Origin: Candidatus Latescibacterota bacterium
GTDB lineage: Bacteria > Latescibacterota > UBA2968
Direction of reading: 5' to 3'
Length of the DNA stretch: 64,000 bases
NCBI GenBank assembly: GCA_965116885.1
Contig: OZ220741.1
Coordinates: 2,368,001 to 2,432,000, forward strand
Shown here: piece after piece, positions 13,047 through 41,501 of the stretch
Position numbering within the stretch: position 1 is the first letter of the stretch
Layout: each line of letters opens with the position of its first letter
The notes under the pieces: model-generated
Seen by the model: the letters and a program-made list of their open reading frames with translations, nothing else
Told to the model about the DNA's origin: nothing
Database searches by the model: none
Made by a program: the position numbers and the translations under genes

Positions 13047-13047
13047 G

Positions 13048-24985: not shown

Positions 24986-25091
24986 CCCTCCTTGTGACGC
25001 CCACTCAATGCGAGTGGGGTTAATTGCTAAGAAACACTATCTATTTTTATAGCTAATAAAAGTAAAACTTAAAAATAATAATGACAATTGT

Positions 25092-25110
25092 GATAATGGT
25101 AAGTATTAGC
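25092..25110. promoter_or_regulatory. Fur-box-like operator
   Basis: GATAATGGTAAGTATTAGC matches GATAATGATAATCATTATC at 15/19 positions and lies at the predicted transcription start of the OMP-TonB operon. Confidence 0.55.
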
Positions 25111-25117
25111 TTACTAA

Positions 25118-25146
25118 AATTTAAAACGCTTGTACTCAGATGTCAA
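25118..25146 (-). promoter_or_regulatory. Sigma70-type promoter of the OMP-TonB receptor-PorV operon
   Basis: Minus strand TTGACA-17 nt-TAAATT. Confidence 0.6.
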
Positions 25147-25419
25147 GCGGTTTTGATACAAAAAATTCTGCCATTTGGCAGAATTGGGAATTAGTATAGA
25201 TATATACACTTATAAAAAAACGTTTATATCTGCTTATGATTATTAGTATCAACACTTCGGACGATAGCGGATAGCGTCCGTATATTTCTGTAAAATGAGG
25301 TGCGCCCCATTCTTTGACCCGGTATAAAGGCTAATGAACGGGGCTGAACATCGCCCCGTTTTACCCCGCTTGACATTGGGTGTCAGCGTGGTATTTTCTC
25401 ACCAACAGGAGGATCTACC

Positions 25420-25704
25420 ATGGGTAAGAAAACCAAGAAGTCCTACTCCGCTAAACTTAAGTTCCAGATCGTGTTAGAGGCATTGACCTCAGACAAAGAA
25501 GATGCAGAATTCGCGCGTGCTTACGATGTGTATCCGGTGAGTCTATCAAACTGGAAGCGTCAGTTTATAGACAACGGTGCACAGATTTTCTCTGGCAATG
25601 ATACGGTCAAAACGTATGAAGCGCGTGTGTCTGATCTGGAGCGGTTGTTAGGTCAGAAAGAAGTAGAACTGGCCTTGCTCAAAAATTTTTTAGGCAACCG
25701 TTGA
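25420..25704 (+). CDS. IS3-family transposase OrfA (HTH)
   Basis: KSYSAKLKFQIVLEAL...ARAYDV...LSNWKRQF...ELALLKNFL; RBS AGGAGG; A/T run AAAAATTTTTT at the 3' end near the OrfA/OrfB overlap. Confidence 0.85.
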   Translation: MGKKTKKSYSAKLKFQIVLEALTSDKEDAEFARAYDVYPVSLSNWKRQFIDNGAQIFSGNDTVKTYEARVSDLERLLGQKEVELALLKNFLGNR

Positions 25705-26232
25705 GCCTGTCAGACCAAGTAGAACTGGTCGAAAAGCATAAGGACAAGTATGGTCTGAATATGTGCTGCCGTGCCTTAGGCTTGTCGAAAGGGACACTTG
25801 CTTATCGTCGCGGTCGGGCCTCTTGTTCGCAGGCAGATACCCAGATAGGCGATATACTGTCTGGACCAGTTACAAAATAACTTGGCCTGTTTGGACAGGA
25901 GACTGTCTGACATCCTCATTCATCACGACCGCGATTCGGTTTATACCTCATACGACTGGTTACATCGTGTGTTGATAACAGAACAGGCAGGGATTTCTTT
26001 TGCGATGAATGGGGCAAAAGATAATCCGTGGATAGAGTCCTTTTGGGGACGTTTCAAAACCGAAAACAAAACTTTGATTATGCACGCAGACTCTTTGACA
26101 GAACTTATCTGTGTGACACAGAAGCAAATGACGTATTACAATCAAGACCGAAGGCATTCTGCTTTGAACTATCGTACGCCACAAGAAGTGGTGCAGGCTA
26201 TTCTTATGAGAAATATCACGGCTGATCCTTAG
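25701..26232 (+). pseudogene. IS3 OrfB integrase remnant with internal deletion
   Basis: N-terminal part (LSLSDQVELVEKHKDKYGLNMCCRALGLSKGT...) stops at ~25880; the C-terminal rve part (IHHDRDSVYTS, DNPWIESFWGRFKTE, YYNQDRRHSALNYRTP) is in another frame; the central region is missing. Confidence 0.8.
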
Positions 26233-26338
26233 CGTAAATTAGCATCCTAACTGGTTCAAATTTTGGGTTACAGATCCCTTTGCAATCCGAGAACTTGGCA
26301 ACGCTTGGCTGGTGTATAGAATTGTATAGTTAATTCTT

Positions 26339-26376
26339 AATTGCCAGCCTGTCAGGATAACGATAGGCTGGCAATT
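26339..26376. other. Strong stem-loop upstream of the TPR gene
   Basis: AATTGCCAGCCTGTC-N8-GATAGGCTGGCAATT (14/15 Watson-Crick pairs plus one G-U). Confidence 0.65.
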
Positions 26377-26409
26377 TCGAGATTTATGAGGTGTGTAAAA
26401 AATAAAAAA

Positions 26410-27384
26410 ATGAGACTTATAGCGATTCTGGTCATAGGTGTTCTATTCTTTTGCAATGCCTTAGATATTTTCTCCGCTCCAGTATCTGAGAATTCAGATT
26501 CTATCAGACCAATATTGACCAAACCATACCAGATCAAACAATTATTGAGCGACTCAGACCGGCGATTCGAGTCAGGCGACTATGAAGGCGCCATCAGTGG
26601 CTATAAAAAAGTGATTGCACTTGATTCTCTCAGTTTTCATGCGTGGTATAATCAAGGAATGGCTTCCATTGCTATTATAAACGATGAACAAGCACTTGCG
26701 TGTTTCACAAAAGCTGTGGCAATTGACCCTGAAAACGCAGCGGCACTTAATGGAAGAGGCACTGCTTATTTTAATTTGAAACTATATCAAAATGCCATCG
26801 AAGATTTTAAGAGGTGTATTGCATTGGATAGTCAACACTATGGCGCACATTATATGTTAGGCCGTGTTTGGAGCCGCCTTGAGAATTTCAAACAGGCTCT
26901 TATTAGCTATCAATTTGCCGCGAGAATAAATGCGGAACCACAAGAACTGTGGTACAATATCGGCTGCGTTCTTTCTAATCTGGGCAGATACAAAGATGCG
27001 ATTGAGCAATTTGATAAAGCCATGCACCTCAATCCCATATATGAGAAATATAAACCTGATGATATTTGGTTGGAAAAAGGCTATGCGCTGCATAAATTAA
27101 AGCAATTTGCCGAAGCTGAAATTTGCTATATAAAAGTACTTGAATTAAATGAAAATCAGGTTAATGAGAATCGAGCGACATCGTATTACAATTTGGCCTG
27201 TATTTATTCTCTCCAAAAATTATGGGAGCAGTCCTTTGCGTCGTTAAAGCAATCTTTGGAACTTGCTCCAAACTATGCTTCAGATGTTCAGAGTGACGAA
27301 GATTTGAAAGGTTTGGTCAACCATCCTATCTACAGCCTTAAAATCAAAGAGCTCGTTGCAAAACATTCTGAAGTAAAAGAATAG
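26410..27384 (+). CDS. Secreted TPR-repeat protein
   Basis: Signal peptide MRLIAILVIGVLFF; ~7 TPRs; terminal YYNLACIYSL...SDEDLKGL cap; AT-rich coding. Confidence 0.85.
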   Translation: MRLIAILVIGVLFFCNALDIFSAPVSENSDSIRPILTKPYQIKQLLSDSDRRFESGDYEGAISGYKKVIALDSLSFHAWYNQGMASIAIINDEQALACFTKAVAIDPENAAALNGRGTAYFNLKLYQNAIEDFKRCIALDSQHYGAHYMLGRVWSRLENFKQALISYQFAARINAEPQELWYNIGCVLSNLGRYKDAIEQFDKAMHLNPIYEKYKPDDIWLEKGYALHKLKQFAEAEICYIKVLELNENQVNENRATSYYNLACIYSLQKLWEQSFASLKQSLELAPNYASDVQSDEDLKGLVNHPIYSLKIKELVAKHSEVKE

Positions 27385-27394
27385 GAAGTTATTT

Positions 27395-28093
27395 TTGGGT
27401 AAAGTAATTGATTATTTAATTTTTGTGGTGATGGCAGGGTTGGCCGTAAGTATGGGGTATAGTGCGTTTTACGAGCAATTTCTCATTTTAACATCTGAGA
27501 GGCAAGTTTTTGTTACCCTGTCTTACGCGGTTATTTATGGTGGGATTTATATCGCAACGCGTCTTGTTACCAAAGATGAGCGTTTTGAAGATATGATACT
27601 TAAACCCAAAACGACATTACAGAGGGCTGTGCATGACGAGAATCATATATTTTCTATCAAGATATTCTGCATAATGGTTCTGCTATCTGGAATCTGGCTA
27701 AATGGGTGGTCAAGATATACTGATGAGTTTGATTGGGGAGGTGCTCCCTGGTTGCTATTTAGATTTCTTCTGGTGAGTTCAATAGGTTTGGGTATCTTCT
27801 GGGTATTTCTGTCCGTGTTTGTCTATGTAATTTTTCAGTTCTTCCGAGGTATCCAGTTTAGCATAATTTTCAGATTATGTGGGTATGTCTTTATTCATTT
27901 TATTGTTTTCTTTGTTTTAATTAATGCAACGCTTATTTGGCCTACGGGGGGGTATGATTTTTTAGTTGCTCTCTCTCTATTGGTGCCCGTTGATTTCTCC
28001 TGGTTGATATTATCTTTTATTTTTCTACAATTCATCTGGCCAACGGTTTTGATATTGTGGAGTCTGTTTCAACCATTTGAGCTGATTGAATAA
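27395..28093 (+). CDS. Hypothetical polytopic membrane protein
   Basis: About 6 hydrophobic segments; 10 bp downstream of the TPR gene; TTG start after AGGAAG. Confidence 0.65.
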   Translation: MGKVIDYLIFVVMAGLAVSMGYSAFYEQFLILTSERQVFVTLSYAVIYGGIYIATRLVTKDERFEDMILKPKTTLQRAVHDENHIFSIKIFCIMVLLSGIWLNGWSRYTDEFDWGGAPWLLFRFLLVSSIGLGIFWVFLSVFVYVIFQFFRGIQFSIIFRLCGYVFIHFIVFFVLINATLIWPTGGYDFLVALSLLVPVDFSWLILSFIFLQFIWPTVLILWSLFQPFELIE

Positions 28094-28186
28094 GATGGAA
28101 CTATTATTTTATTTTTTTAGTGCTGATTATTGTGGTGTGCATTTCACAAAATCATTCAAAATACGATCCAGATCCGTTTGTAAATC

Positions 28187-28276
28187 GTTCTAACTCTTGA
28201 TTTGATGTGAAACAAAAATTGCGATGAGTATAGACCAGATATTTCAAGAACTGAATATAAAAGGCGAATTGGTATC
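28187..28276 (+). repeat. Direct repeat copy 1: 5' UTR and first ~17 codons of the PCAT gene
   Basis: GTTCTAACTCTTGATTTGATG...ATGAGTATAGACCAGATATTTCAAGAACTGAATATAAAAGGCGAATTGGTATC, matching 36700-36787. Confidence 0.9.
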
Positions 28277-28582
28277 TGAGGGTCGGAGTTTTGTTTATGT
28301 GCTGTCCTTATATTGAAAATAAAAAAACTGCCATTCACGATTTTTTATGCAAAAAGTAGAAATATGCGGCACATAATGAGAAATAAGCGTAGTATTTTTT
28401 GAATTGCGATTCCACAAACGATTGTAGTATATTAAATTAAAAGCCGCCAACAAGACCTGGAAAAGTCCCCTGTTAGCGGCGGGTTAGTATCTCAAGCGGA
28501 TAACTTGAGAACACTAAAATCAAAAATAACTACTCGAAGCTCTATTGTCAACCACCGAGATTTGTGGCTTGCTGATTATAAT

Positions 28583-29248
28583 ATGGACAAGCAGAAAATT
28601 TTGATCGTAGGTCATGCAATCTATACTATGTCGGGGTTCATAAGATTCTTGATAGATGACCCTCATGAAGTATTTACTGCACCAGATGGGCGAGAAGGGC
28701 TTGAAATTTTAAGAAGAGAGCAGATAGACCTTGTCATAGCCGAAATGTATATAGAGGACGTTGATGGGATACACTTTGTGAGGTGCATATCGGCGGAGAA
28801 AATTCAGATAGATATCTTGCTCAGGGCAAGGTCTGAATTCCCGGATTTGGGCGAACAAATACCCAAGACAAGCATAAGTGTGTCCCCCATAATAAGAGAT
28901 ACATTTTTGGTGAAGGTCAAGACGTTTGTGCCTTCATACGATCTGTGGAAAACAAAATTGGAATCATTTCTGAATGAACATTACAGCAATCCAGAGCTAA
29001 AATTTGATGAACTCATGAACTATTTCCAAATCTCCAGATCATACGGTTGCAAACTGTTCAAAAAATATTTGGGCAAGCCCTTCCGTGAAGCATTGAGGGA
29101 GGTCAGAATTGGAAAGGCAAAATCACTGCTCGAAGAAACGCTATTGCCCATTTCTGAAATTGCGGAAAGCAGTGGTTTTCGTTCATCATCGCGTTTCAGA
29201 GAAGCTTTTAAAAGATTATACGGCATATCTCCTCGCGCTTACCGCTAA
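28583..29248 (+). CDS. AraC-family regulator with degenerate receiver domain
   Basis: Receiver-like N-terminus (KILIVGHA, APDGREGLEIL..EQIDLVIAEM) and AraC HTH (ISEIAESSGFRSSSRFREAFKRLYGISPRAYR). Confidence 0.85.
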   Translation: MDKQKILIVGHAIYTMSGFIRFLIDDPHEVFTAPDGREGLEILRREQIDLVIAEMYIEDVDGIHFVRCISAEKIQIDILLRARSEFPDLGEQIPKTSISVSPIIRDTFLVKVKTFVPSYDLWKTKLESFLNEHYSNPELKFDELMNYFQISRSYGCKLFKKYLGKPFREALREVRIGKAKSLLEETLLPISEIAESSGFRSSSRFREAFKRLYGISPRAYR

Positions 29249-29302
29249 AAAATGGATGAGACGATAAGTTAAGCTTTGATCATCCAGGTTGAGGGCAATA
29301 TA

Positions 29303-31813
29303 ATGGCGATCCCAAAACGAATCGTTTTCTATAGCCAGCACTTAATCGGTGTGGGACATCATTTTCGCAATCGGGAAATTGTTCGCGCGCTGGCTCAGAA
29401 TCATCAGGTCTATTTTGTAGATGGAGGTCGCCAAATTCCCGGAGGCGATTTGCCAGACTCGGTTGAGCGCATCCAGCTATTACCTGTTTTTGCTTCTAAG
29501 GAGGGACTATCTTCGGATGAATTAGGCCGAGATATTCAGGAGGTTCTTCGTGAACGCTGTGATGTATTGTGTAAAGCAATCGAGAACATTGATCCAGATA
29601 TATTTATGATCGAGTTTTTTCCTTTTGGCCGTGGGAGATTGCGTTCAGAGTTGATTTTGGCGATTGAGTCCGCCCGGTCAACCAACCCGGATGTGAAAGT
29701 GATTTGTTCATTGCGGGATATCCCGATGCGAGCCAAAACTGCTGACCTCATTGGACCACCGATGCCCGATGCGTTGGCTATCACGGGCAAATTGCGATTT
29801 TATTCGGTGCCGTTTGGCGGACCACAGTATGTCCACACCCTGATGGCGCAGCGGTATTATAACGAGGTCTGCCCGACTTTGAACACGCATTTTGATGTGT
29901 TGCTCGTTCACGGAGATCCGAAAGTAACGCGACTGGAGGAGCATTTTCCCTGGGTAGAGGATATTGAGATTCCCATTGAATATACAGGATATGTGTCAGA
30001 AAAATTAAAGCCACAACGTCTGAAGAATGGATTGCCCAAACGCTTTGTCCTTGTCAGTACAGGGGGTGGGGCTGAGGCTTATGAGTTGATTGTTCCGTGC
30101 ATAGAAGCTTGGAAACTGTTGTTGAAACAGGGGGCAACGCAGGGCAGGGAAATGGCGATTTTTACAGGTCCTTTTGTCCATGATGATCAATTTGAATCCT
30201 TAAAACAAATGTGTGACGATGGTCCATTCCGGCTCTCGCGCTTTGTGCCTGATTTTCTATCGTGGATGAATGCGGCGGATTTTTCAATTAGTCGGGCTGG
30301 CTACAATACGTGTATGAATGTGCTTGAAACAGGCACACCCACCTTGCTGGTTCCAAGTGTACCCATGGGCGACCAGGTATTCCGAGCAGAGAAACTATCT
30401 GAACTGGGACTTGCTGATGTGATTGCCAGCGAAGACCTGAGTCCGGATAGTGTTGCCGATGTTATTATAAAGGGTATATCTCGACCTCCAGCAAGCCATG
30501 ATATTGCGCTTGATGGTGCAAATAAGACGCTTGAGTTTGTTTCTAAACTATCTACACGCAGTCGAAAGATGGTCTGTATGGATTTCGATTTTAAGATCAA
30601 GGATGAGATGAAAATTTGCATGATTGCCCATCAGTACCCACCTGTGTCGGGTGGAGTCGGTGTTGCTACCCAACGAATTGCTCGGAATCTGGCACGTTGC
30701 GGTGTTTCTGTCCATGTAATCGCTCCTGGATCCCATCGGGTTGGCGAAGCTATTTCTGTTGCGCGTGAGGATGGTGTAGAGGTTCATCGGATGTATCTCG
30801 CCCTGGCGCATTATTACGGAGAACAACGGGAGTTACAGAATATTGGCACTTATGTTGTCCAATTACATAAAAAAGAACATTTTGACATCGTACATGGTTT
30901 GTTTCTGAGTCCTGCAGGATTGGTAGCTGCAAATGTGTCCGCAGAAATAGACAGACCTTTCGTGGCGAGTATTCGAGGGAATGATTGGGAAACCATGCGA
31001 TACAGTCCTTTGTTGGCGGCTTCTTCCAGATGGGTGCTTGAGCGTGCGGACATGGTGACGTCTGTTTCTTCTGCCTTGCTTGAAAAAGCCCAGAAGATCG
31101 TTCATATTACGCATGGAAAAGTTATTCCCAATGCGTTTGATTTTTCGCTTTTTGACCATCGCCCGCTTAAAGAGATTGGTTCTCAACAAGTCGGGCAATT
31201 CTTGAAGGTTAAAGGAATAGATAGATTGGTCGTTGGCACGGTGGCTATGATTCGGCACAAAAAAGGCCATCGCATTTTATTTGAAGCTTTTAGGGTTCTC
31301 CTTGAAAAGTGTTCAGATGCCATCCTCTTAATGGTTGGAGATTATCACAGTGAACAAGACCGGATGGCTTTTACTCAGCAGATTGAAGAATTGGGCCTGG
31401 AGGATAGGCTGTTTATCACTGGAGAAGTGCCGCATACACACGTACTTGCCTGGTTGAAAGAGATGGACATTTTTGCCTATCCTTCGCTTTATGAAGGATC
31501 ACCAAATGCTCTTTTGGAAGCAATGGCGTGTGGCCTACCCATAGTGGGGTCACAAGTCGATGGCATAAGTGATTTGATTACAGACGGAAAGAATGGGCTT
31601 CTCATCCCGGCAGGATGTGTGGATAGGCTTTCAGAGACTCTCATTCTGCTGGCAAAAGATCAGGAACTGAGAGATCAATTGGGGTCAGCAGCACAGCAGA
31701 TGATTGAGCAAGAGTTGATGCCGGTGCATGAGGCGAAAATCTGGGTGGATACGTACAATCTGGCTATAGCCTGCCATCAAGAACAGGTAGGTAGGGCCGC
31801 TGGTGTTGGTTGA
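29303..31813 (+). CDS. Fused glycosyltransferase: COG4671/GT28-C-like domain + GT4 domain
   Basis: N-half: YSQHLIGVGH, IEFFPFGR, SLRDI, VSTGGG, SRAGYNT. C-half from 30608: MKICMIAHQYPP..GG, PSLYEGSPNALLEAMACG. Confidence 0.9.
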   Translation: MAIPKRIVFYSQHLIGVGHHFRNREIVRALAQNHQVYFVDGGRQIPGGDLPDSVERIQLLPVFASKEGLSSDELGRDIQEVLRERCDVLCKAIENIDPDIFMIEFFPFGRGRLRSELILAIESARSTNPDVKVICSLRDIPMRAKTADLIGPPMPDALAITGKLRFYSVPFGGPQYVHTLMAQRYYNEVCPTLNTHFDVLLVHGDPKVTRLEEHFPWVEDIEIPIEYTGYVSEKLKPQRLKNGLPKRFVLVSTGGGAEAYELIVPCIEAWKLLLKQGATQGREMAIFTGPFVHDDQFESLKQMCDDGPFRLSRFVPDFLSWMNAADFSISRAGYNTCMNVLETGTPTLLVPSVPMGDQVFRAEKLSELGLADVIASEDLSPDSVADVIIKGISRPPASHDIALDGANKTLEFVSKLSTRSRKMVCMDFDFKIKDEMKICMIAHQYPPVSGGVGVATQRIARNLARCGVSVHVIAPGSHRVGEAISVAREDGVEVHRMYLALAHYYGEQRELQNIGTYVVQLHKKEHFDIVHGLFLSPAGLVAANVSAEIDRPFVASIRGNDWETMRYSPLLAASSRWVLERADMVTSVSSALLEKAQKIVHITHGKVIPNAFDFSLFDHRPLKEIGSQQVGQFLKVKGIDRLVVGTVAMIRHKKGHRILFEAFRVLLEKCSDAILLMVGDYHSEQDRMAFTQQIEELGLEDRLFITGEVPHTHVLAWLKEMDIFAYPSLYEGSPNALLEAMACGLPIVGSQVDGISDLITDGKNGLLIPAGCVDRLSETLILLAKDQELRDQLGSAAQQMIEQELMPVHEAKIWVDTYNLAIACHQEQVGRAAGVG

Positions 31814-31827
31814 GGAGGAAGGCTATT

Positions 31828-33231
31828 GTGAAAATCTATATTCCACATCCTTATCGAACGAGTGAAGAGATGTACACAGCAGACAGCGGTGCCGCACTCT
31901 CAGGTTTTAATCATACACGAGCTTTAGCCAGGTACTGCGAAGTGTATATGCCAGCACAAGAATCTCAGCAATATGAGGAGAATATCTACGGGATTCCGCA
32001 GACATTTGAGACCATAGGTTCTTCGTTGGCCTGGTTTGAGCAGCAATCGTTTGATGCAGTGGTCATGTTTGAACCGAATGTAGATGATCTGGTGTTTTTT
32101 CGGCATGTTTGTCCGGCACCGATTATAATTCGTTTGTCGTGCTGTTTTGGCCGTAACCGCGAATTTTTGAACAAAGTGCTGAACTGTTATTCCCTATTGC
32201 GCCCTTACGATGCCTTGTCCCCCAAGTCTCAATGGTGTGCTGAGGAACTGAGCAAGTATGTGTTTGATGCTTCATATCTCAAGCCGATTACGAATGGAGT
32301 GGATTTAGAGACGTTCAAGCCTTCAGACAAGCTGAACGCGAAAAAGCGACTTGCCGAGGTGACAGGAGACAATCGCTTTGTAGAGATGCCCGTTGTGGGA
32401 CTTTGTTCGCGGTTTGAACCGGGAAAAGGAGCATATCCGTTTTTACGTGCGGCAGATCTCAATCCCAATGTGCTTTTCGCTGTTATCGGCAAGCAGTTTG
32501 CACCCGTGACACATCCCGTAAATGTGGCCTTTCTTGGTTCCCAGCCCTATACCCAGATGCCACTGTTTTACAATGCGCTGGATGTGCTGTGTGCTTTGTC
32601 GGTATATTCTTATGAGTCCTGTCCTTCGGTTGTGCTGGAGGGCATGGCCTGCGGCCTCCCGATTGTTGCAACTCAATTTGCCGGTGCGCCTGAGTTGCTG
32701 GATGATTGTGGTCGATTGATAGAGATTGACCGATTCGAGAACGAGCCACTGAATGTCACGGGATATATCGAGCCAGAGATGGTCTCTGAATCGATTTGCG
32801 AGTTATTGAGCAGCAAAACTGAACGATTGAAATTGGGATGTAGAGCACGGAAAAGGGCAGAAAGTTTTTCCTGGGATAACATCGCCAATCAGCATGTGAG
32901 TCTGATTGAAAATTTATTGAACAAGCGCGATCAACCTGCTTGTTCGGTTCCACTGACAGTACATTTTTCACAAACTTGTGACTCTGAGGGCGATATCAAG
33001 AGTATTCCGAGGGCATTTAATTTTTTTGGAAGACAACAAGGCCCACTACCGCGCATTTCTTTTTTGGGGCAGGATATGACTTTTCTCGAGGGATTTGGGC
33101 TTTATCTGAGCCAGATGCTTCATCCAAACGAAGTCGAAGCAGCGATGATCGGCGTGTGTGGTGATGGCGACACCGCATATAAGGTGCTTCGCAAAATTCG
33201 ACAATTTAACGATATGCTGACAGCACCTTGA
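31828..33231 (+). CDS. GT4-family glycosyltransferase with ~95-aa C-terminal extension
   Basis: NGVDLETF, RFEPGKG, YESCPSVVLEGMACGLP, FSWD; GTG start after AGGAGG. Confidence 0.88.
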   Translation: MKIYIPHPYRTSEEMYTADSGAALSGFNHTRALARYCEVYMPAQESQQYEENIYGIPQTFETIGSSLAWFEQQSFDAVVMFEPNVDDLVFFRHVCPAPIIIRLSCCFGRNREFLNKVLNCYSLLRPYDALSPKSQWCAEELSKYVFDASYLKPITNGVDLETFKPSDKLNAKKRLAEVTGDNRFVEMPVVGLCSRFEPGKGAYPFLRAADLNPNVLFAVIGKQFAPVTHPVNVAFLGSQPYTQMPLFYNALDVLCALSVYSYESCPSVVLEGMACGLPIVATQFAGAPELLDDCGRLIEIDRFENEPLNVTGYIEPEMVSESICELLSSKTERLKLGCRARKRAESFSWDNIANQHVSLIENLLNKRDQPACSVPLTVHFSQTCDSEGDIKSIPRAFNFFGRQQGPLPRISFLGQDMTFLEGFGLYLSQMLHPNEVEAAMIGVCGDGDTAYKVLRKIRQFNDMLTAP

Positions 33232-33324
33232 AAACGCCTTATTTTGGGAAGGAGGTGGTTTTGAGCAAAGAGCCGTGTTGTAATACACAATGTCGTAGTT
33301 CACTGTAAACTGAAAGGAGTAAAG

Positions 33325-33735
33325 ATGTCGATCAATTTGAAGAAGCGAATGACAACAGGTCCCAAGACTGCATTTGTTTCTTGTGTGAATCTCCCTCAGC
33401 AGGAAAGAGATATTACCATGCAAGAGGCAAGGATGATTACTGGTGGTAATACTGACATCGTCGGAGACGAGTATAGAAAGCGCGGCTGGACTCCTCCGCC
33501 TACTATGAATGGCGGAGGGGTTACCCCAAGAGGTGGGGGAGGTAGAGGGAGAGGAACAGGTGGTGTCAAAGCTATTGGTAAACTAGTCAAGTCTTTGACT
33601 TCGAGTTCAGGAGGTTCAGGAGGTTCAGGAGGTTCAGGAGGTTCAGGAGGTGAAGCTACATCCGAGACGTTTGATGATCCTCACAATAGCGAATTGGGCT
33701 ACGATGTAGTTAATGGGCGGCGGGTTTACCATTAA
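33325..33735 (+). CDS. Double-glycine leader precursor peptide (candidate RiPP/PCAT substrate)
   Basis: Strong RBS AAAGGAG; leader ends DITMQEARMITGG, matching LSxxELxxIxGG; 95-aa Gly/Ser/Thr-rich core; lies upstream of a C39-PCAT. Confidence 0.85.
   Translation: MSINLKKRMTTGPKTAFVSCVNLPQQERDITMQEARMITGGNTDIVGDEYRKRGWTPPPTMNGGGVTPRGGGGRGRGTGGVKAIGKLVKSLTSSSGGSGGSGGSGGSGGEATSETFDDPHNSELGYDVVNGRRVYH
33606..33650 (+). repeat. Perfect 9-bp tandem repeat (TTCAGGAGG)x5 encoding (Ser-Gly-Gly)x5
   Basis: Read directly from the sequence. Confidence 0.95.
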
Positions 33736-33878
33736 CTTCGTTGTAAATACAAGTACTGAAAAATGCTAAAAGCAGATAGTGAACCATAGACCTGCCGGGA
33801 TAACCAAGGTTCAAAGGGTTTGACAGTTCCAGAATATTCGAGGACTTCCAAAACGTTTTTGGTAAATCTCAATGGATT

Positions 33879-33919
33879 ATATTGTAGGCTTTGAATTAGA
33901 CTTTCAAGGCCTACAATAT
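33879..33919. other. Long stem-loop between precursor and M16 genes
   Basis: ATATTGTAGGCTTTGAA-N7-TTCAAGGCCTACAATAT (16/17 Watson-Crick pairs plus one G-U). Confidence 0.7.
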
Positions 33920-33937
33920 TTACAGGTTTATAGGCAT

Positions 33938-35314
33938 ATGAATTCCTTATATCAAACACGCAAGTTTTTCTGTATAGCAGCATTCGTGTTATTTCTATAT
34001 GCGCCAACATTTGGGCAAAATAATAGCACAGGGAGTTTGACAAAGTACGAATTAATAAAAAAAAGAAATTTAACTGATGGATTGGAAGTTGCCGAATATA
34101 GACTTAAAAATGGACTTCGGGTTGTGATTGTCAAAGATACTACAGAACCGATTTTCGCTTATCAGACATTTTTTCGAGTAGGATCGGTGCATGAACCCCC
34201 AGGTCGTCAGGGTATCGCACATTTTTTAGAGCATCTTATGTTTCGAACACGAATAGATACTTCTACAATTAGCGATCTTTCCAAAATGGTCAAACTAAAA
34301 GGCGGAAGAGATTTTAATGCTGGAACGTCAAGAGATGGAACAGTATTTCATGTTCTTCTTCCAAAAGATCAACTCGAATTTATTATAGAAATCGAATCGC
34401 GTCGTATGGCAGACCTGAGTATTTCACCTGAAATGTATATCAACGAAAAAGAGGCTATTCTCACTGAAAAATCTACTGAGAATGCAGATCCTATCAATTA
34501 TTTGTGGAATGCGATATACAGATCGCTATATACTGTCCACAACTATCGAAATTCGGTTATAGGAGAAGCAGAAACAATCGAGAACGTGACATTAGATGAC
34601 ATAATGGATTTTCATAGAATTTTTTTTAAACCCAACAATGCGTTGATTGTTGTCGCTGGTGATTTTGTTCCTGAAGACGTCATTGAGTTGATTGACAAAT
34701 ACTATGGTCATATACCGACTGGAAAAAAAATAAAAGGCTATAAAATATTGGAACCAAAACCTGAACAAGACCGAATTTTGACATTGATGCATCCTAAGAC
34801 CCAATTATATACTATATCAAATATATGTCGGCTGCCGGATATTGAAGAACGAGATCGCATTGTGCTTTCTATATTCGCCCACCTCATGGAATTGACACTA
34901 AAAGCCCAATTGGAAAATGCATCTATCGTTACAATACGGGTTTCGCCTCGGGTACATGCGTATGACTATTTCTTTATTTTTGTTCTTCAGTCAACCGAGA
35001 AAATAGAAGTAAAAAAGATACAAAACACCCTTGATCAGATATTCGATTTTTTTCGAGATGATGTTAATGAAACACTGCTCAAGGTTGCGATAGAAGAATA
35101 TAGACAAAGCCTGTACTTTATTTATTCCCAACAACAGGAATTGGCAAAATTATTAGGCGAAAGTTATCTAAAAACTGGCGATCCCCTTTCGGGTATTGAT
35201 GTTTTGAATGCCATTGATCAAGTGGGCGTTGAAAATATAAAAAGGGTTGTAAAACAATACTTTTACAATCAGCCGATGCATACGACTTTGCTATCTCCTG
35301 ACGATTTTGAGTAG
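33938..35314 (+). CDS. M16 (pitrilysin/M16B) zinc peptidase, catalytic subunit, with signal peptide
   Basis: LKNGLRV, VGSVHE..GIAHFLEHLMF (HxxEH), FNAGTS, PNNALIVVAGD; hydrophobic N-terminus. Start may be 33872. Confidence 0.9.
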   Translation: MNSLYQTRKFFCIAAFVLFLYAPTFGQNNSTGSLTKYELIKKRNLTDGLEVAEYRLKNGLRVVIVKDTTEPIFAYQTFFRVGSVHEPPGRQGIAHFLEHLMFRTRIDTSTISDLSKMVKLKGGRDFNAGTSRDGTVFHVLLPKDQLEFIIEIESRRMADLSISPEMYINEKEAILTEKSTENADPINYLWNAIYRSLYTVHNYRNSVIGEAETIENVTLDDIMDFHRIFFKPNNALIVVAGDFVPEDVIELIDKYYGHIPTGKKIKGYKILEPKPEQDRILTLMHPKTQLYTISNICRLPDIEERDRIVLSIFAHLMELTLKAQLENASIVTIRVSPRVHAYDYFFIFVLQSTEKIEVKKIQNTLDQIFDFFRDDVNETLLKVAIEEYRQSLYFIYSQQQELAKLLGESYLKTGDPLSGIDVLNAIDQVGVENIKRVVKQYFYNQPMHTTLLSPDDFE

Positions 35315-35325
35315 AGGAATAGAAA

Positions 35326-36663
35326 ATGGTGTATTCGAGCAGGTTTCGATTTCTCAGTGGAATTGTAGTTTCAATTTTCCTGTTTGTGTGTTGTCAACCA
35401 GAACCGAGTAGCATAACGCAAAAGTTATATTATCAGAATGATAAACGTGTCCCGATGACGTATATCAATCTGATTATACGAGATATAAGGCAAAAAGATA
35501 AATTGAAGGACTTAGTTTCGATCCTATTGTTTGATTATCCCAACAAAGTTGTCGAAGAAATCCTCCTGCAAGGATTTGTCTCAGGCGCAAGGTGGGAGTC
35601 TTTAACGAGTCCAGATGTTTTTGAAATCAGAATATCAACCCCGAGCAAGCATCTTCGTCAAGTTCTTTCAGATACGCACAAAATCCTATATGAAACAGAT
35701 TTTTCGATAATTGACATTGAATTGGCTAAAGCGCAGCTATATCACAAGCAGAAGAAAGATATTCAGGAAAATTTTTTCAATGCAGTCGTTTGGTATGGTC
35801 TCAAAAAGAGTACGGATTTTCTGGGATTGACGCCCTTATCGGAGTTGGAAGGAATTACAGGACGGGATGTGCAGCATTGCTATGAACAAATGCTCGCTTC
35901 GCCCTTTTATTTTTCAGTGATTTCGGATCTTCCCAGAGGAGAGGTCGAAAGTGCCTTAGCGATCTTCGCAAAAAATACCCAACTCGAAGAAATGGAGCGC
36001 AATACTGGGGGATCGACTTGGGAGTTGTCGGGCAGACAGGTTTTGATCGTCAATACGCCTGGCACTGATATTGATGAGTGTTATTGGATATTGAAAGGTC
36101 TTGATCGTCGAGATCCAGATTATTTGGTACTTCGGGTTATTGTCGATGCAATTGGGGGAGATTTTGATAGTCTTTTATATGAAGTTTTACGTGAAGAAAA
36201 AGGCTTATGTTATGCAGCGAATGCTGCCATTGAGAATTGGTTGAAGCCTGGTTATATCAGCTTTTATGCCAATCCTAGAACGGAAAATACAGCGAAATTA
36301 GTCCATGAGCTTTTTTTGCTCATAGACGATTTCAGTAAAGAGAAACGTTTTTGGCAAAAAATAGAAGATAGTAAAATAAAATTAAAATATCAGTATGTTT
36401 ACACACAAATGCTTGAAGAAAAACTCAATAGACAAATTCAACGCGATTTATACGGTGTCCCTTTATTAGAACAAGAGGATTTCGAAAAGAAAATAGATGA
36501 GATAGACGAGGAACGAGTACGAAAAGTTTTAGCAAAGGTTTTTTCTACGCAAAATATTTTTATGATTTTTGTTGGAAATGCAGATCGTTTAAGCAAAATT
36601 GCAAATCAAGTTATAGAAGAAAAAAAAGTAGAAATATTCAATCGCGCGTTTTTTGATTGGTAA
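35326..36663 (+). CDS. M16 peptidase non-catalytic partner subunit, probable lipoprotein
   Basis: No HxxEH; carries the R/Y motif SLLYEVLREEKGLCY; N-terminal IFLFVCC signal. Confidence 0.8.
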   Translation: MVYSSRFRFLSGIVVSIFLFVCCQPEPSSITQKLYYQNDKRVPMTYINLIIRDIRQKDKLKDLVSILLFDYPNKVVEEILLQGFVSGARWESLTSPDVFEIRISTPSKHLRQVLSDTHKILYETDFSIIDIELAKAQLYHKQKKDIQENFFNAVVWYGLKKSTDFLGLTPLSELEGITGRDVQHCYEQMLASPFYFSVISDLPRGEVESALAIFAKNTQLEEMERNTGGSTWELSGRQVLIVNTPGTDIDECYWILKGLDRRDPDYLVLRVIVDAIGGDFDSLLYEVLREEKGLCYAANAAIENWLKPGYISFYANPRTENTAKLVHELFLLIDDFSKEKRFWQKIEDSKIKLKYQYVYTQMLEEKLNRQIQRDLYGVPLLEQEDFEKKIDEIDEERVRKVLAKVFSTQNIFMIFVGNADRLSKIANQVIEEKKVEIFNRAFFDW

Positions 36664-36699
36664 CAGGTGTTACACAATTTACAGGAATGGACTTGAGCT

Positions 36700-36787
36700 G
36701 TTCTAACTTTTGATTGGATGCTAAAAAAAGTGTGATGAATATAGACCAGATATTTCAAGAACTGAATATAAAAGGCGAATTGGTATC
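36700..36787 (+). repeat. Direct repeat copy 2 (true PCAT 5' end)
   Basis: Matches 28187-28276. Confidence 0.9.
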
Positions 36788-39728
36788 GTTTGACCTGGGA
36801 ACAGTGGTTTTTAATCAGGGCCAATCTGATGATGGCTTGTATGTCGTCAAGTCGGGCCGCTTGCGAGTGTTGAAAGAGGATGAGGAAGGACAGTCAGAGA
36901 CGTTAGGGTATCTGTATGAAGGCGATCATTTCGGTGAGGGGGCGTTGTTGACAAGCAAGGGGCATCGGGCGACGGTGCGAGCAGCCGAAGATTCTGAAGT
37001 GCTTCGCATCAAGCCTGAAGATTTTCAAAGAGTAATAAAAAATGACCCAGAACTCAAAACGTACTTTGAAGATCAGATCGCGCATATTGCGTATCGGGAC
37101 TTTACGCGGTTTTTGAAGGGGGGAAGCGATCAGGTGTCCGCAGAGGCAATGCAGCACCTGTTCGGTAATCTAAAACGACAGGTGTATCAATCAAGCGAAA
37201 CGGTAGTTAAACGTGGCGATATGGGGAGCGGACTTTATCTGGTCGGTGGAGGCGAATTGGAGGCGGTTGGGCAGGATAGTGAAACAATAGTTCTAAATCC
37301 GGGCGATTTTTTTGGCGATCAGGCATTGATAGATGGCATCGTGGAACCCTTTACGGTAAGTGCCCAAAATTATTGTGTTCTGTTTCAATTAGATAAAAGT
37401 GATTTTTATGAAGTTATAGCTTCGATTCCAGCGTTGGAATCGGGACTCGAAGCCGGGCGTTGTGTTCAAAAAGTGGAAGCAGAAGACGATGAGCCACAGG
37501 TGGAATCGACAAATGGAACTCCCGACAATGTGCATCTGCTTGATCACGCGCCTGAAGCAGGTCGTCCACCCCGATCTTTCCAATTTCCATTTTTGAAACA
37601 GCACGATCAGTCGGATTGTGGCGCAGCGTGTTTGGGCATGATTTGTAAGTATTACAAGATGCCGATTGGATTGAACAGACTGCGCGATATGTCCAATGTG
37701 TCGCGGTCTGGCACGTCAATGGCCGCGCTGGCCGAAGCAGCAGAGACATTGGGGTTTCTGACGCGGGGCGTGCGAACGGGATATGAGAAACTGATGCATA
37801 CGGAATTGCCAGCCATTTTGCACTGGAAAGGCAATCACTTTGTGGTGTTGTTCAAAACCGCAAAAGACCAGGTGAGAATTGCCGATCCTGCAGTGGGGGT
37901 TCGCAAGTTATCTCGCAAGGAATTTGAGGCCGAGTGGACCGGTGTGGCTTTGCTCATAGAATACACAGATCAAGTTGCCGAAAATGAGCCTTCTCGCACG
38001 ACTTTTCGCCGTTTTATACCGTATGTCAGACCGTATGTTCGCAGTTTGTGTGAGATTTTTCTGGCCTCGTTGGTGATGAGTCTTTTTGGGTTGGCGTCAC
38101 CACTTTTTACTCAGACGATAGTGGATCAGGTGCTGGTACATCACGATCGGGATTTATTGAATTTGATGCTTGCAGGGATGGTTGTCATCGCATTGTTCCA
38201 GATGCTTGTTTCATCCCTGCGGACGTATCTGGTCACTTATATGAGTACGCGGTTGAGTATGACGCTACTCTCCCGGTTTTACCAGCATTTGTTATCGTTG
38301 CCGATGCGGTTTTTCGCGTTGCGAAAGACGGGTGACTTGACAACGCGTTTTGGGGAAAATGCCACGATTCAAGCTTTGCTGACCGGCACGGTTGTTTCGC
38401 TCATTCTCGATGTGATTGTACTGTTTGTCTATCTGAGTTTGATGGTCTATTACCATCTCCAATTGACACTGGTGGTTCTGGCTTTTATTCCGCTTTCTAT
38501 TGTTTTGACACTGGTCTATACACCTATTCTCAAATCTCTCAGTCAGCGCGCATTTCTCGCACGGGCTGAGCAGTCATCCGTACTGATTGATTCATTGCGC
38601 GGGATTGATACGGTTAAGACACTGGCTATAGAGCGTTCCACGCGGTGGCGATGGGAAGAGCGTTATATGAAATCGATTCAGATAGGGTTTTCGGGTATGA
38701 AGATCGGGCTGTTATTCGGGTCAGCAGGTGGGCTGATGAACCTTTTCAGTAGCACGTTTATTTTATGGTACGGCGCGACATTGGTGATGGATGGCGAGCT
38801 TTCTGTGGGGCAGTTGATGGCTTTTAATTCACTGATTGGCAATGTAACCGGGCCGATTATGGGGCTGATTGGACTGTGGCCGCAGGTGCAGGAGGCGCGG
38901 ATTGCGCTGGATCGGTTAAATGATGTGTACGAAACGCCGATGGAGACATCGCGTCAAGGTGCTTATGGTATTGTGCTTTCGGGTGTTGAGGGTCGCATTG
39001 TATTTGAAAAGGTGTTTTTCCGATACGGTTCGGGTTCTGATGAGCCTTATGTGTTGAGCGATATTAGTTTGACGACAGAACCCGGACAAAAGGTGGCTAT
39101 TGTGGGGCGCAGCGGAGCGGGTAAAACAACGCTGGTGAAGTTGATCCCCCGATTTTTTGACCCCACGGAAGGGCGTGTGACCATAGATGGAATGGATGTG
39201 CGGGACTTTGATCCGGGCTGGTTGCGGCAGCAGGTCGGCATGATTTTACAGGAGTCGGTGCTTTTCAGTGGTACTATAGCCGAGAATATCGCGCTGGGGC
39301 AGGAGGATGTGGATATGGATCGGGTTCTGGAAGTGGCGCGGTTGGCGTGCGTACACGAATTTGTCGGTGACATGCCTCTGGGATACGAGACAAAGGTGGG
39401 AGAGCAGGGCATGGGGCTTTCAGGGGGACAGCAGCAACGCATTGCAATAGCCCGTGCGCTGTATCACGATCCAAAAATCCTGATTTTTGACGAGGCGACC
39501 AATGCTCTGGATACGGAATCAGAACAGGCGATTCAGGAGAATCTGGAGATTATTTTGAAAGATCGGACAGCTTATGTAATCGCGCATCGGTTGAGTACGG
39601 TGCAAAATGCCGATTGGATTGTGGTGCTGGATAAGGGGCATGTGATTGAGCAAGGCACACACGGTGAGTTGATGGACAAGCAGGGATTGTATCATCATCT
39701 TTTGGGACAGCAGTTGCAGGGTGTATGA
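36735..39728 (+). CDS. Peptidase-containing ABC transporter (2x cNMP-binding + C39 + ABC membrane + ATPase)
   Basis: cNMP domains (GDHFGEGALL; GDFFGDQALI); C39 QHDQSDCGAACL, HWKGNHFVVL, IADPA; Walker A GRSGAGKT, LSGGQQQR, ILIFDEAT, IAHRLST. Confidence 0.95.
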   Translation: MNIDQIFQELNIKGELVSFDLGTVVFNQGQSDDGLYVVKSGRLRVLKEDEEGQSETLGYLYEGDHFGEGALLTSKGHRATVRAAEDSEVLRIKPEDFQRVIKNDPELKTYFEDQIAHIAYRDFTRFLKGGSDQVSAEAMQHLFGNLKRQVYQSSETVVKRGDMGSGLYLVGGGELEAVGQDSETIVLNPGDFFGDQALIDGIVEPFTVSAQNYCVLFQLDKSDFYEVIASIPALESGLEAGRCVQKVEAEDDEPQVESTNGTPDNVHLLDHAPEAGRPPRSFQFPFLKQHDQSDCGAACLGMICKYYKMPIGLNRLRDMSNVSRSGTSMAALAEAAETLGFLTRGVRTGYEKLMHTELPAILHWKGNHFVVLFKTAKDQVRIADPAVGVRKLSRKEFEAEWTGVALLIEYTDQVAENEPSRTTFRRFIPYVRPYVRSLCEIFLASLVMSLFGLASPLFTQTIVDQVLVHHDRDLLNLMLAGMVVIALFQMLVSSLRTYLVTYMSTRLSMTLLSRFYQHLLSLPMRFFALRKTGDLTTRFGENATIQALLTGTVVSLILDVIVLFVYLSLMVYYHLQLTLVVLAFIPLSIVLTLVYTPILKSLSQRAFLARAEQSSVLIDSLRGIDTVKTLAIERSTRWRWEERYMKSIQIGFSGMKIGLLFGSAGGLMNLFSSTFILWYGATLVMDGELSVGQLMAFNSLIGNVTGPIMGLIGLWPQVQEARIALDRLNDVYETPMETSRQGAYGIVLSGVEGRIVFEKVFFRYGSGSDEPYVLSDISLTTEPGQKVAIVGRSGAGKTTLVKLIPRFFDPTEGRVTIDGMDVRDFDPGWLRQQVGMILQESVLFSGTIAENIALGQEDVDMDRVLEVARLACVHEFVGDMPLGYETKVGEQGMGLSGGQQQRIAIARALYHDPKILIFDEATNALDTESEQAIQENLEIILKDRTAYVIAHRLSTVQNADWIVVLDKGHVIEQGTHGELMDKQGLYHHLLGQQLQGV

Positions 39729-39731
39729 TTT

Positions 39732-41453: not shown

Positions 41454-41501
41454 TGAGAGGGTGATGGTATTGCACAAACATTAAAAAATAAACACACTTC
41501 C

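Follow-up and report, generated by a model that had tools for sequence, protein, structure and literature searches.

Background

In T6SS effector-immunity loci and in the Rhs and CDI systems, a conserved gene is outlined as a homology anchor beside which a new variable module is placed while the older one is kept aside; in the Rhs and CDI case the displaced module keeps a piece of the conserved gene, and the mechanism proposed is illegitimate recombination that homology facilitates (Kirchberger et al. 2017, PMC5361080). In the pneumococcal blp locus, a variable bacteriocin and immunity region lies beside blpA, the gene of a peptidase-containing ABC exporter (PCAT), and blpA is often disrupted (PMC3171984, PMC4860687). 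The locus described here shares features with both. Like the T6SS, Rhs and CDI orphans as that paper outlines them, it has a conserved anchor (the PCAT gene), a new module adjoining it and an old module kept with a piece of the PCAT gene; unlike them it is built in mirror image, the conserved gene lying downstream and the orphan upstream with the 5' end, and it concerns a double-glycine peptide export cluster rather than toxin delivery, with an insertion sequence remnant involved. As in blp, variable genes sit beside a peptidase-containing ABC exporter and broken exporters are common among relatives; unlike blp, it belongs to another lineage and combines a cNMP-binding PCAT with glycosyltransferases, an M16 pair and a PPIase, and it carries a duplicated 5' exporter stub, of which the titles and abstract openings of papers on blp make no mention. 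Among the papers listed by a literature search, none dealt with cNMP-binding PCAT clusters with glycosyltransferases.

The window is the whole 64,000-nucleotide stretch of DNA that was analysed; coordinates below refer to it, and the genes named are on its forward (+) strand unless stated otherwise. An earlier note on this DNA had pointed to a direct repeat of the 5' end of a PCAT gene and had suggested that the block between the copies was a cargo module placed before the exporter, or else that an earlier module had been displaced. Our verdict is that the repeat pair is the scar of module shuffling in a mosaic bacteriocin-like locus, not a mobile cassette. The upstream copy (copy 1) is probably a PCAT stub on an old module, here called the T module, fused at an illegitimate joint before a complete cluster whose own exporter gene has its working start in the downstream copy (copy 2).

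The repeat pair and the stub

The repeat itself is real: 28187-28276 and 36700-36787 match at 90% over 90 nt by blastn, around an ungapped core of 63 nt (28214-28276 and 36725-36787; 95% identity, spacing 8511) whose last 50 nt are identical in both copies, and only two copies occur in the 5,557,749-base single-contig genome. We infer that an exact run of 50 nt within 64 kb is far beyond chance. Copy 1 comprises the final 14 nt of a Cys-rich gene, a T-type UTR and the first 17 PCAT codons plus 2 nt; copy 2, by alignment, comprises the same 14 nt, a T-type UTR and the intact PCAT start, so its left end is the tail of a gene and not a recombination site. The 8,423 nt between them hold the content previously described, namely a regulator, two glycosyltransferase genes, a precursor and the M16 pair. 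Likewise borne out is the description of a diverged UTR part and a coding part one base apart, since the copies differ in 8 of 38 alignment columns of the former and in 1 of 52 of the latter (codon 2, AGT in copy 1 and AAT in copy 2). Alleles of different species differ in 3-10 of the 38 UTR columns, and other pairs show 1-7 differences in the coding part. Because the UTR divergence is at the between-species level, the two copies look like two alleles rather than a fresh duplicate. Nor does the pair resemble a target-site duplication, being 90 nt long, 90% identical and derived from genes, with the IS3 remnant described below sitting outside it.

Short-read contigs break within the repeat, as would be expected if the arrangement were an assembly artefact: the contigs of the public runs X22 and X23 do so, with no bridging piece among those listed. 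Against this, the window belongs to a single 5.56-Mb contig, 0.98 of the words sampled from 27600-29000, the unique joint included, are present in each run, their depth is even over 26000-38000 with no differences among the pieces listed, and homologous natural contexts for the two copies exist in relatives. An artefact, which the earlier note had named as a possibility, is exceedingly improbable. The run with the highest share may be the source sample; the sponge, coral and marine metagenome runs listed have small word shares, from which we draw no habitat reading.

Copy 1 is a dead, non-functional 5' stub of the PCAT gene. Its ORF (28224-28316) reads MSIDQIFQELNIKGELVS and then continues for 12 unrelated codons to a TGA stop at 28314-28316, so that the earlier statement that the copy breaks off after about 17 codons holds for the homology, which ends after 17 codons and 2 nt, and not for the reading frame. 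The context of the stub is native, running from a TPR gene through a membrane-protein gene, a Cys-rich remnant and the UTR to the PCAT start, and 28137-28276 is colinear with the junction of Cys-rich gene, UTR and PCAT gene in three related genomes (G002, G008 and G013); a fragment of the conserved gene is still carried by the displaced module at its native junction. To the right, PCAT codon 18 is separated by 7 nt of filler (28277-28283) from the 3' arm of a terminator hairpin. Both G020 and G011 have this hairpin intact, as a 9-bp G+C-rich stem and a T run behind a dockerin-like gene, and the homology of the window to this region begins at 28284, within the 3' arm of the stem. The right end of copy 1 (28276 to 28284) is an illegitimate joint in the terminator hairpin. 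A minus-strand ORF that spans the joint (28156-28338) was used as a query against other assemblies and returned no candidate, which is uninformative.

About 230 nt separate the stub from the regulator gene downstream of it, and it could have been kept there for a function, either as a second PCAT promoter and leader that drives or co-regulates the regulator-glycosyltransferase operon or as a substrate for gene conversion. It has hardly decayed (1 of 52), and kin further off carry the membrane protein together with M16a (both described below), perhaps in this same layout. Such a function is nonetheless highly improbable: promoter-like sites (4 vs 3.3 in shuffles) and terminator-like sites (1 vs 1.1) show no excess, Rfam has no match across 24500-42000, the frame of the stub continues into unrelated codons, and the adjoining Cys-rich gene is broken.

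The displaced T module

The whole cluster occupies a variable island (25210-41505) with a GC content of 34-53%, vs 49-58% in the flanks. The flanks nearly adjoin in G008, with about 83 nt between them, and in G001, with about 361 nt, and the island site is therefore empty there; in G004, G011 and G020 this site is taken by other versions of the cluster. The island ends show no att-like repeats, a comparison of 24900-26300 with 41350-42400 having given chance matches of 9-14 nt only. Within the island stands an IS3-family remnant (25296-26278; orfA 25420-25704, orfB tail 25882-26232; Pfam HTH_Tnp_1 and rve_3), which has lost about 380 nt internally, at 25847/25848. Intact multi-copy kin of the element occur in 15 of 20 genus genomes, and this genome has no second copy. 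The remnant's right end, 26278, is immediately followed by T-module homology, which begins at 26279, with no sign of a target duplication.

The first gene of the module encodes a TPR protein (26341-27384; Pfam TPR_1, E 1.3e-39), whose shared start is probably codon 20, at 26398, and which is 81-91% identical in amino acids to its counterparts in G001, G002, G008 and G020 over residues 20-347. The second encodes a multi-pass membrane protein of 232 aa (27395-28093) of no known family, with no match in Pfam or NCBIfam and 12 homologous clusters, all of them close kin at 78-93% identity. Both ORFs are intact and have no function assigned; dN/dS is 0.25-0.37 for the TPR gene and 0.28-0.45 for the membrane-protein gene (0.25-0.45 over the two), pairwise values that mix lineages and were dropped as a means of dating any loss of function. 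By analogy with the T6SS, Rhs and CDI orphans, as far as that paper outlines them, the two are possibly orphan protection (immunity) genes. The third is the remnant of a Cys-rich (CxxC) gene (28095-28200), recognised by aligning it with an intact paralog (L014:6632-7300(-)) and with the intact genes in G002, G008 and G020; of the 195 aa of the intact form, it keeps 14 head codons and an out-of-frame tail, a deletion near 28137 having removed about 480 nt. This remnant, between the membrane-protein gene and copy 1, was absent from the earlier note, which likewise overlooked the last 14 nt of the Cys-rich gene in copy 2. In the ESM Atlas, the best scores for the membrane and Cys-rich proteins were 0.82, under the meaningful level.

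Relatives show where such a module ordinarily belongs. In G002 and G001, the T-type order is GT1-GT2-precursor-TPR-membrane-CysRich-PCAT-HlyD-PPIase; GT1, GT2 and the first 17-18 leader codons are upstream of the TPR module in the same cluster, and the equivalent of 26279-28187 falls between the equivalents of 33377 and 36700. The allele predicted earlier, in which the TPR and membrane-protein genes directly precede an intact PCAT gene, is present in G002, where an intact Cys-rich gene completes the set. Here, the T module lies 8.5 kb upstream of the live slot, without a precursor and beside the internally deleted IS3 element, and a different precursor core and the M16 protease pair fill the slot from leader to PCAT. 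The T module occurs in six genus genomes, with an intact PCAT directly behind it in G002 alone; decay of the PCAT behind a T module is common.

Judged by its flanks (93%), G020 is the closest relative. Its island occupies the same site and runs from the regulator-upstream region through an IS256 remnant, a precursor core and the T module to an S-type set and the PCAT. G020 shows a second, independent and differently placed displacement of the T module from the PCAT gene, the module ending 2 nt before the ATG there, vs at codon 18 here. G020 also bears on the possibility that IS3 imported the segment from the TPR gene to PCAT codon 18 out of a T-type cluster and dropped it before a complete M16-type cluster. 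The remnant does directly adjoin the T module, the T-type clusters of G001, G002 and G008 lie at other chromosomal sites, and the two repeat copies resemble different alleles, all as such an import would have it. The T module is already at the same site in G020, however, so that import is not needed; furthermore, 28277-28283 holds neither a second IS end nor an inverted repeat, there is no target duplication, and the genome of the window is without another copy of the element. We regard IS-mediated import as distinctly unlikely.

Conserved backbone and variable slot

Beyond the joint, the window carries a complete cluster. It begins with the regulator upstream region and a response-regulator/AraC gene (28284-29248, gene 28505-29248; Pfam HTH_18, HTH_AraC and Response_reg), of which 28284-28496 is 95% identical to G020 and 28321-30560 is 90% identical to an S-type cluster of G004. 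Two glycosyltransferase genes follow (29276-33231; Pfam), GT1 with 845 aa, a GT28-like N-half and a GT4/GT1 C-half, and GT2 with 473 aa; the T-type clusters of G001 and G002 match 29277/29314-33377 at 87-91% identity, and the regulator and GT1 N-half are common to S-type clusters. The double-glycine precursor (33325-33735) has, in translation, a leader that ends in ...MITGG and a Gly/Ser-rich core. Its first 20 residues equal those of the T-type precursor of G002, with 99% identity over 33300-33377, and it is divergent beyond. By these sequence matches, the conserved backbone takes in the regulator, the two glycosyltransferases and the beginning of the leader, none of which is cargo.

Only from 33378 to 36699 (3.3 kb) does the DNA between the copies lack a match in the 20 other genus genomes. 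This segment holds the precursor core and two protease-family genes, M16a (33872-35314), which carries an HFLEH motif, and M16b (35326-36663), which has the M16_C domain only (Pfam). M16 protease pairs occur in peptide-maturation clusters, among them PqqF/PqqG and AlbE/AlbF. The pair here is like these in having one active HxxEH subunit and an M16_C-only partner beside a precursor gene, and unlike PqqF in its NCBIfam match of 31 bits vs a cutoff of 320; matches to YfmH/YfmF are also far under their cutoffs. At E<=1e-80, M16a is found in none of 52 other genomes of the order. Its homologs in the protein database are 83-96% identical, apart from one 290-residue fragment at 81%, and the nearest homologs beyond close kin are 34-38% identical. 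Genome contigs gave only generic M16 peptidases at 27-40% identity among the at least 80 loci listed, and metagenome contigs gave a single irrelevant locus for M16b.

The intact PCAT gene (36735-39728) encodes two N-terminal cNMP-binding domains, a C39 peptidase, an ABC membrane domain and an ABC ATPase (Pfam PF03412 3.5e-40, PF00664 1.5e-52, PF00005 3.4e-33 and two cNMP_binding stretches), and it scores 542.6 bits against TIGR01193 bacteriocin_ABC, for which the cutoff is 523.85. The gene of copy 2 thus joins C39, ABC membrane domain and ATPase in one protein, as the PCAT class requires, and copy 1 has 17 codons of it. The protein is 93% identical in amino acids to those of G002 and G004, with dN/dS of about 0.1. 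Behind it, a HlyD adaptor is fused to a PpiC-type PPIase (39732-41453; 573 aa; Pfam HlyD_3 and Rotamase), parts that in relatives are two genes (HlyD corresponding to residues 1-410 and the PPIase to 392-573) about 350-550 nt apart. The idea of a conserved transporter is well founded: PCAT-HlyD is 95.5% identical between the two cluster types of G002, with stretches of 98-100%, and about 91% identical between G002 and this genome. The GT1 N-half is 92% identical between the two clusters of G002, and the variable middle of each is flanked by GT1 N-half and PCAT-HlyD anchors.

In this genome, the order regulator/GT-GT-precursor-X-PCAT-HlyD-PPIase is found three times. Different cargo does occupy the site, as had been anticipated, and the gene sets before PCAT vary in relatives and in the genome's own paralogous clusters alike: the T module in G002 and G001, an S-type set in G004, G011 and G002, both in G020, and a CAAX protease or nothing in the paralogous clusters C and B. 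An intact PCAT beside a different module, with alternative modules in relatives, is what displacement of the T module would leave.

The proposal of an 8.4-kb cassette placed before a fixed exporter, with the repeats as ends for excision or swapping, draws on the direct repeats that bracket the block and on this variability of the slot; a run of 50 identical nt, moreover, is long enough for homologous recombination. It is weakened by both content and ends. The T module of G002 lies inside the cluster, behind GT1-GT2-precursor, and so the 8.4 kb are not inserted cargo: regulator, glycosyltransferases and leader belong to the common backbone, and the 3.3 kb alone are unmatched in the other genus genomes. 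As for the ends, the right end of copy 1 is the illegitimate joint in the hairpin, and the T module ends elsewhere in G020, so that precise repeat ends do not recur between that genome and this one. Among 13 island ORFs (of 15 scanned with Pfam, short or overlapping minus-strand ORFs being left out), there is no recombinase, only fragments of the IS3 transposase. No joint that skips about 8.5 kb appears in the contigs of X22, X23 and X1, a weak point since contigs drop rare variants. An excisable or swappable cassette is very unlikely. Rare RecA-dependent loss of 8.5 kb via the 50-nt identical run could occur, and its product would be an exporter without glycosyltransferases and without a precursor.

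The repeat is a fixed marker of how the peptide-export clusters of this family get rebuilt. The variable part begins within the leader, runs as far as the exporter gene's start and is not the whole biosynthetic block; its anchors are the GT1 N-half and leader on one side and PCAT-HlyD on the other. This provides a map for mining the locus, indicating which genes go with which precursor type. That a mosaic bacteriocin-like locus bears a recombination scar is, on its own, unsurprising.

Origin of the joint

In the reading that we prefer, a stub left on the old T module, two cluster versions would first have been joined head to tail, either through unequal or illegitimate recombination or through a homology-facilitated capture in which PCAT-HlyD anchored the incoming DNA. 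The product would have carried the T module and PCAT stub of one version directly before the regulator-GT-GT-precursor-M16-M16-PCAT of the other. An IS3-linked deletion may then have taken the dockerin-like gene, regulator, glycosyltransferases and precursor of the first version. Along this path, the repeat is a by-product of the joint and not a recombination site of a cassette. We infer this order of events, and no intermediate was found.

An in-situ tandem duplication from 28284 to PCAT codon 18, followed by reciprocal loss, would yield a similar layout. Copy one would have lost its regulator, glycosyltransferases and precursor through the IS3-linked deletion, and in copy two the precursor core and T module would have given way to a precursor core and the M16 pair; the right crossover would have fallen near the ATG. 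The topology matches a tandem-duplication joint exactly, one unit's end being fused to the start of the next, the coding part is nearly identical (1 of 52), G020 has the presumed original order at the same site, and all segments have a similar dS to G002 (0.18-0.32). The UTR parts are, however, as far apart as between species (8 of 38), and the model must therefore add a further replacement. It also needs a donor cluster with the M16 pair behind a T-type UTR and Cys-rich tail, and none was found in the genomes and contigs searched. We consider a tandem duplication possible though unlikely.

The coding part, with 1 difference in 52, is slightly closer than two independent alleles suggest, an observation that runs against the reading of a stub on an old module; same-lineage duplication or later gene conversion could account for it. 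Homologs of the membrane protein (89.7%) and of M16a (87.7%) are presumably on one contig of 23,131 nt, and a genome of 5,875,595 nt carries homologs of both. If these kin share the joint, the scar is old and the good preservation of the stub needs explaining.

More speculatively, the PCAT 5' end may be a recurrent anchor at which new modules of precursor core and accessory genes are captured and old accessory modules kept upstream with a stub, the stub being kept alike by conversion; we hold this tentatively and think it doubtful. If true, the locus would be the peptide-exporter counterpart of T6SS, Rhs and CDI orphan immunity arrays in a marine host-associated lineage, the TPR and membrane-protein genes would possibly confer immunity, and conversion would keep module switching possible. 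Two independent displacements of one module, here and in G020, and the membrane protein together with the M16 pair in more distant kin, fit such an anchor and do not show it.

For annotation, two ORFs, the 30-codon one at 28224 and the one at 28095, should be treated as the pseudogene pieces that they are.

Two starts of one exporter gene

The direct repeat reported in the earlier note is real. Positions 28187-28276 (copy 1) and 36700-36787 (copy 2) are 90% identical across 90 nt; an ungapped 63-nt core, its two occurrences 8511 apart, reaches 95%, and the final 50 nt are identical. The genome carrying the window (G000; one contig of 5,557,749 bases) has no third copy. Run mapping did not overturn it: of the words sampled from 27600-29000, two public sequencing runs (X22 and X23) contain 0.98 each, and depth is even across 26000-38000 (~49 in X22, ~24-33 in X23) with no differences in the listed pieces; the contigs of both break inside the repeat. 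Identical M16a protease and membrane proteins are found in a further assembly, 5,561,361 nt long. No joint skipping ~8.5 kb was reported in the run contigs, which cannot show rare variants, and excision of the intervening DNA as a cassette, as had been envisaged, is unsupported. The repeat pair does not qualify as a site-specific cassette or as a target-site duplication.

Copy 2 opens an intact peptidase-containing ABC exporter (PCAT) of 997 residues (ATG at 36735), with two cNMP-binding domains, a C39 peptidase domain, an ABC membrane domain and an ATPase. Copy 1 (ATG at 28224) shares only the first 17 codons plus 2 nt; homology does stop where the first copy had been said to break off, but the frame stays open for 12 unrelated codons, until a stop at 28314-28316. 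In an alignment of gene-start alleles (A2), the untranslated parts of the two copies differ in 8 of 38 columns, inside the range of 3-10 among T-type alleles (see below) from different species, and the coding parts in 1 of 52, compared with 1 to 7 for 35 other pairs; the sole coding difference, AGT at codon 2, occurs in the stub alone. The noted contrast of a diverged untranslated part with a conserved coding part thus fits the allele ranges and is mostly a general pattern of the PCAT gene start and no special signature. On this comparison the copies look like two alleles, with the low coding difference leaving some room for same-lineage origin or gene conversion.

Conserved backbone and variable slot

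The genes first described between the copies are indeed present in these 8,423 nt: a response-regulator/AraC regulator, two glycosyltransferases (GT1, 845 aa; GT2, 473 aa), a double-glycine precursor whose leader (...MITGG) precedes a Gly/Ser-rich core, and an M16 protease pair, of which M16a has HFLEH and M16b an M16_C domain only. A search with 26300-29300 covered 41 genomes, among them G000 and 20 congeners, and eight loci were compared. In T-type clusters (G002, G001) the order is GT1-GT2-precursor(T)-TPR-membrane-CysRich-PCAT-HlyD-PPIase: 29277/29314-33377 is matched at 87-91%, followed by ~440 nt of a different precursor core, then 26279-28137, an intact Cys-rich gene and 36700 onwards. 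S-type clusters (G004, G011 and a second cluster of G002) have the regulator, the GT1 N-half only, a different GT2 (55% aa), their own precursor and TPR gene (410 aa), a second Cys-rich protein, a second membrane protein and PCAT last. Two further clusters in G000, whose PCAT proteins are 65% identical, are organised likewise, with a CAAX protease or nothing in the slot before PCAT.

Given the plan shared by T-type, S-type and G000 paralog clusters, the regulator, GTs and leader are backbone, and only the stretch between a point within the leader (33377) and the start of PCAT varies; an inserted 8.4-kb cargo is not supported. In G000 this stretch comprises the precursor core and M16 pair (33378-36699), with zero DNA matches among the 20 other genus genomes; M16a has zero matches at E<=1e-80 among 52 other genomes of the order. 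Different gene sets do occupy the position before PCAT (T type, S type, CAAX protease, nothing, M16 pair), so that a swappable slot at a conserved exporter was right in spirit, if not as an 8.4-kb excisable cassette. The anticipated allele with TPR and membrane genes before an intact PCAT exists in G002, but inside the cluster, downstream of the GTs and precursor. The two cluster types of G002 share PCAT-HlyD at 95.5% (stretches 98-100%) and the GT1 N-half at 92%, each being only ~91% identical to G000 in these parts; PCAT-HlyD and the GT1 N-half do recombine, with the variable middle lying between them.

Several side observations concern these genes. The regulator with ~150 nt upstream (28351-29233) has many paralogs in G000 (79% at 1.83 Mb; others 66-72%) and genus-wide, a large group of response-regulator/AraC genes with a conserved leader region. 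In contigs of lower depth (14.4 against ~50 in X22; 4.9 against ~30 in X23) 30560 is joined to 31829 with 28 other letters between, and run X1 has a similar joint (30558 to 31825, 23 other letters); these forms, which place GT2 directly after the GT1 N-half as in S-type clusters, may come from a second strain or from a related cluster present in the samples. In G000 a single 573-aa ORF (39732-41453) encodes both the HlyD adaptor and the PpiC-type PPIase, a fusion apparently made by deletion; these are two genes (~460 and ~260 aa) in relatives and in the paralogous clusters of G000.

Joints, displacement and exporter decay

A third gene, now broken, occupies 28095-28200, after the membrane-protein gene (end 28093) and before copy 1. 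It once encoded a membrane-anchored, Cys-rich (CxxC) protein of 195 aa; its first 14 codons and its tail survive, with ~480 nt lost and the tail out of frame. Copy 1 opens with the last 14 nt of this gene and copy 2 does likewise, despite the M16 gene now upstream, so the working PCAT was formerly preceded immediately by a Cys-rich gene. G000 has an intact paralog at 766.6 kb (locus L014). There, a tandem Cys-rich pair (L014:6632-7788; 766.6-767.8 kb, minus strand), one S-type-like and the other 88-95% identical to the Cys-rich protein of the T module (TPR, membrane-protein and Cys-rich genes), is not part of an exporter cluster; its neighbours are genes for a nickel-insertion protein and a GH95 enzyme.

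Copy 1 ends at 28276 and, after 7 nt, regulator-upstream sequence begins at 28284, whose counterpart in G020 (95%) and G011 starts within the 3' arm of the terminator hairpin that follows a dockerin-like gene; 28276/28284 is an illegitimate joint from PCAT codon 18 to the start of the regulator upstream region. On the other side, T-type homology starts at 26279, directly abutted by the end of an IS3-family element (25296-26278) with an internal deletion of ~380 nt and no target duplication; the element is multi-copy in 15 of 20 congeners and single in G000. T-type clusters have a precursor core ahead of the TPR gene; G000 lacks it there. The whole lies in a variable island of lower GC (25210-41505), whose site is empty in G008 and G001 and holds other cluster versions in G004, G011 and G020. 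The dockerin-like gene (L026:3586-4335 in G020, with the matching 1 kb of L031 in G011), whose 249-aa product has a dockerin type I domain, sits between left flank and regulator and is missing in G000. The left island border in G004 carries (L030, 17068-17150) a copy of right-border sequence (41477-41559, 84%), accompanied by a piece of the right-flank gene region (42259-42337, 91%), which may be a trace of island rebuilding there.

At the same site in G020, the dockerin-like gene and terminator are followed by the regulator-upstream region cut at the 28496 equivalent, an IS256-family transposase remnant, the T-type precursor core, and TPR, membrane-protein and CysRich genes; this T module ends in the UTR, 2 nt before the ATG, ahead of S-type Cys-rich and membrane genes and a PCAT. 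The two layouts, with different break points and different nearby IS remnants, indicate that the T module parted from its exporter twice. Six genus genomes carry the module, only G002 with an intact PCAT directly behind, and PCAT decay there is frequent: CysRich residue 70 is fused to PCAT residue 61 in G001, a stub precedes unrelated genes in G008, remnants precede a lone regulator in G013, the PCAT of G020 has internal deletions, and G000 keeps the 17-codon stub.

Origin of the layout

The arrangement probably arose by head-to-tail joining of two cluster versions at the illegitimate joint, a later IS3-linked deletion then trimming the upstream version, and the Cys-rich gene and IS element decaying afterwards. 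Joining could reflect capture of incoming DNA with a homology anchor in PCAT-HlyD, homology-facilitated illegitimate recombination being the mechanism proposed for T6SS effector-immunity displacement in PMC5361080; unequal recombination involving two clusters already resident, or a tandem duplication with later replacement, is equally likely. A point that may count against a simple recent scar is the co-occurrence of homologs of the membrane protein (89.7%) and M16a (87.7%) on 23,131-nt contigs, presumably one contig, and of both also in a 5,875,595-nt genome. Among known patterns, the nearest is that of Rhs, CDI and T6SS arrays, where a displaced orphan module retains part of a conserved gene; the G000 layout is its mirror image, the 5' end being kept. 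Pneumococcal blpA also resembles this locus in having a variable bacteriocin region beside an exporter gene.

Elsewhere in the window (7078-8694 and 10668-13064), 40-47-nt repeats recur every 150-400 nt within long ORFs, forming families that resemble repeated calcium-binding or FG-GAP-like motifs (GATGGCGATCTGGATCT); they are coding repeats, not mobile DNA.
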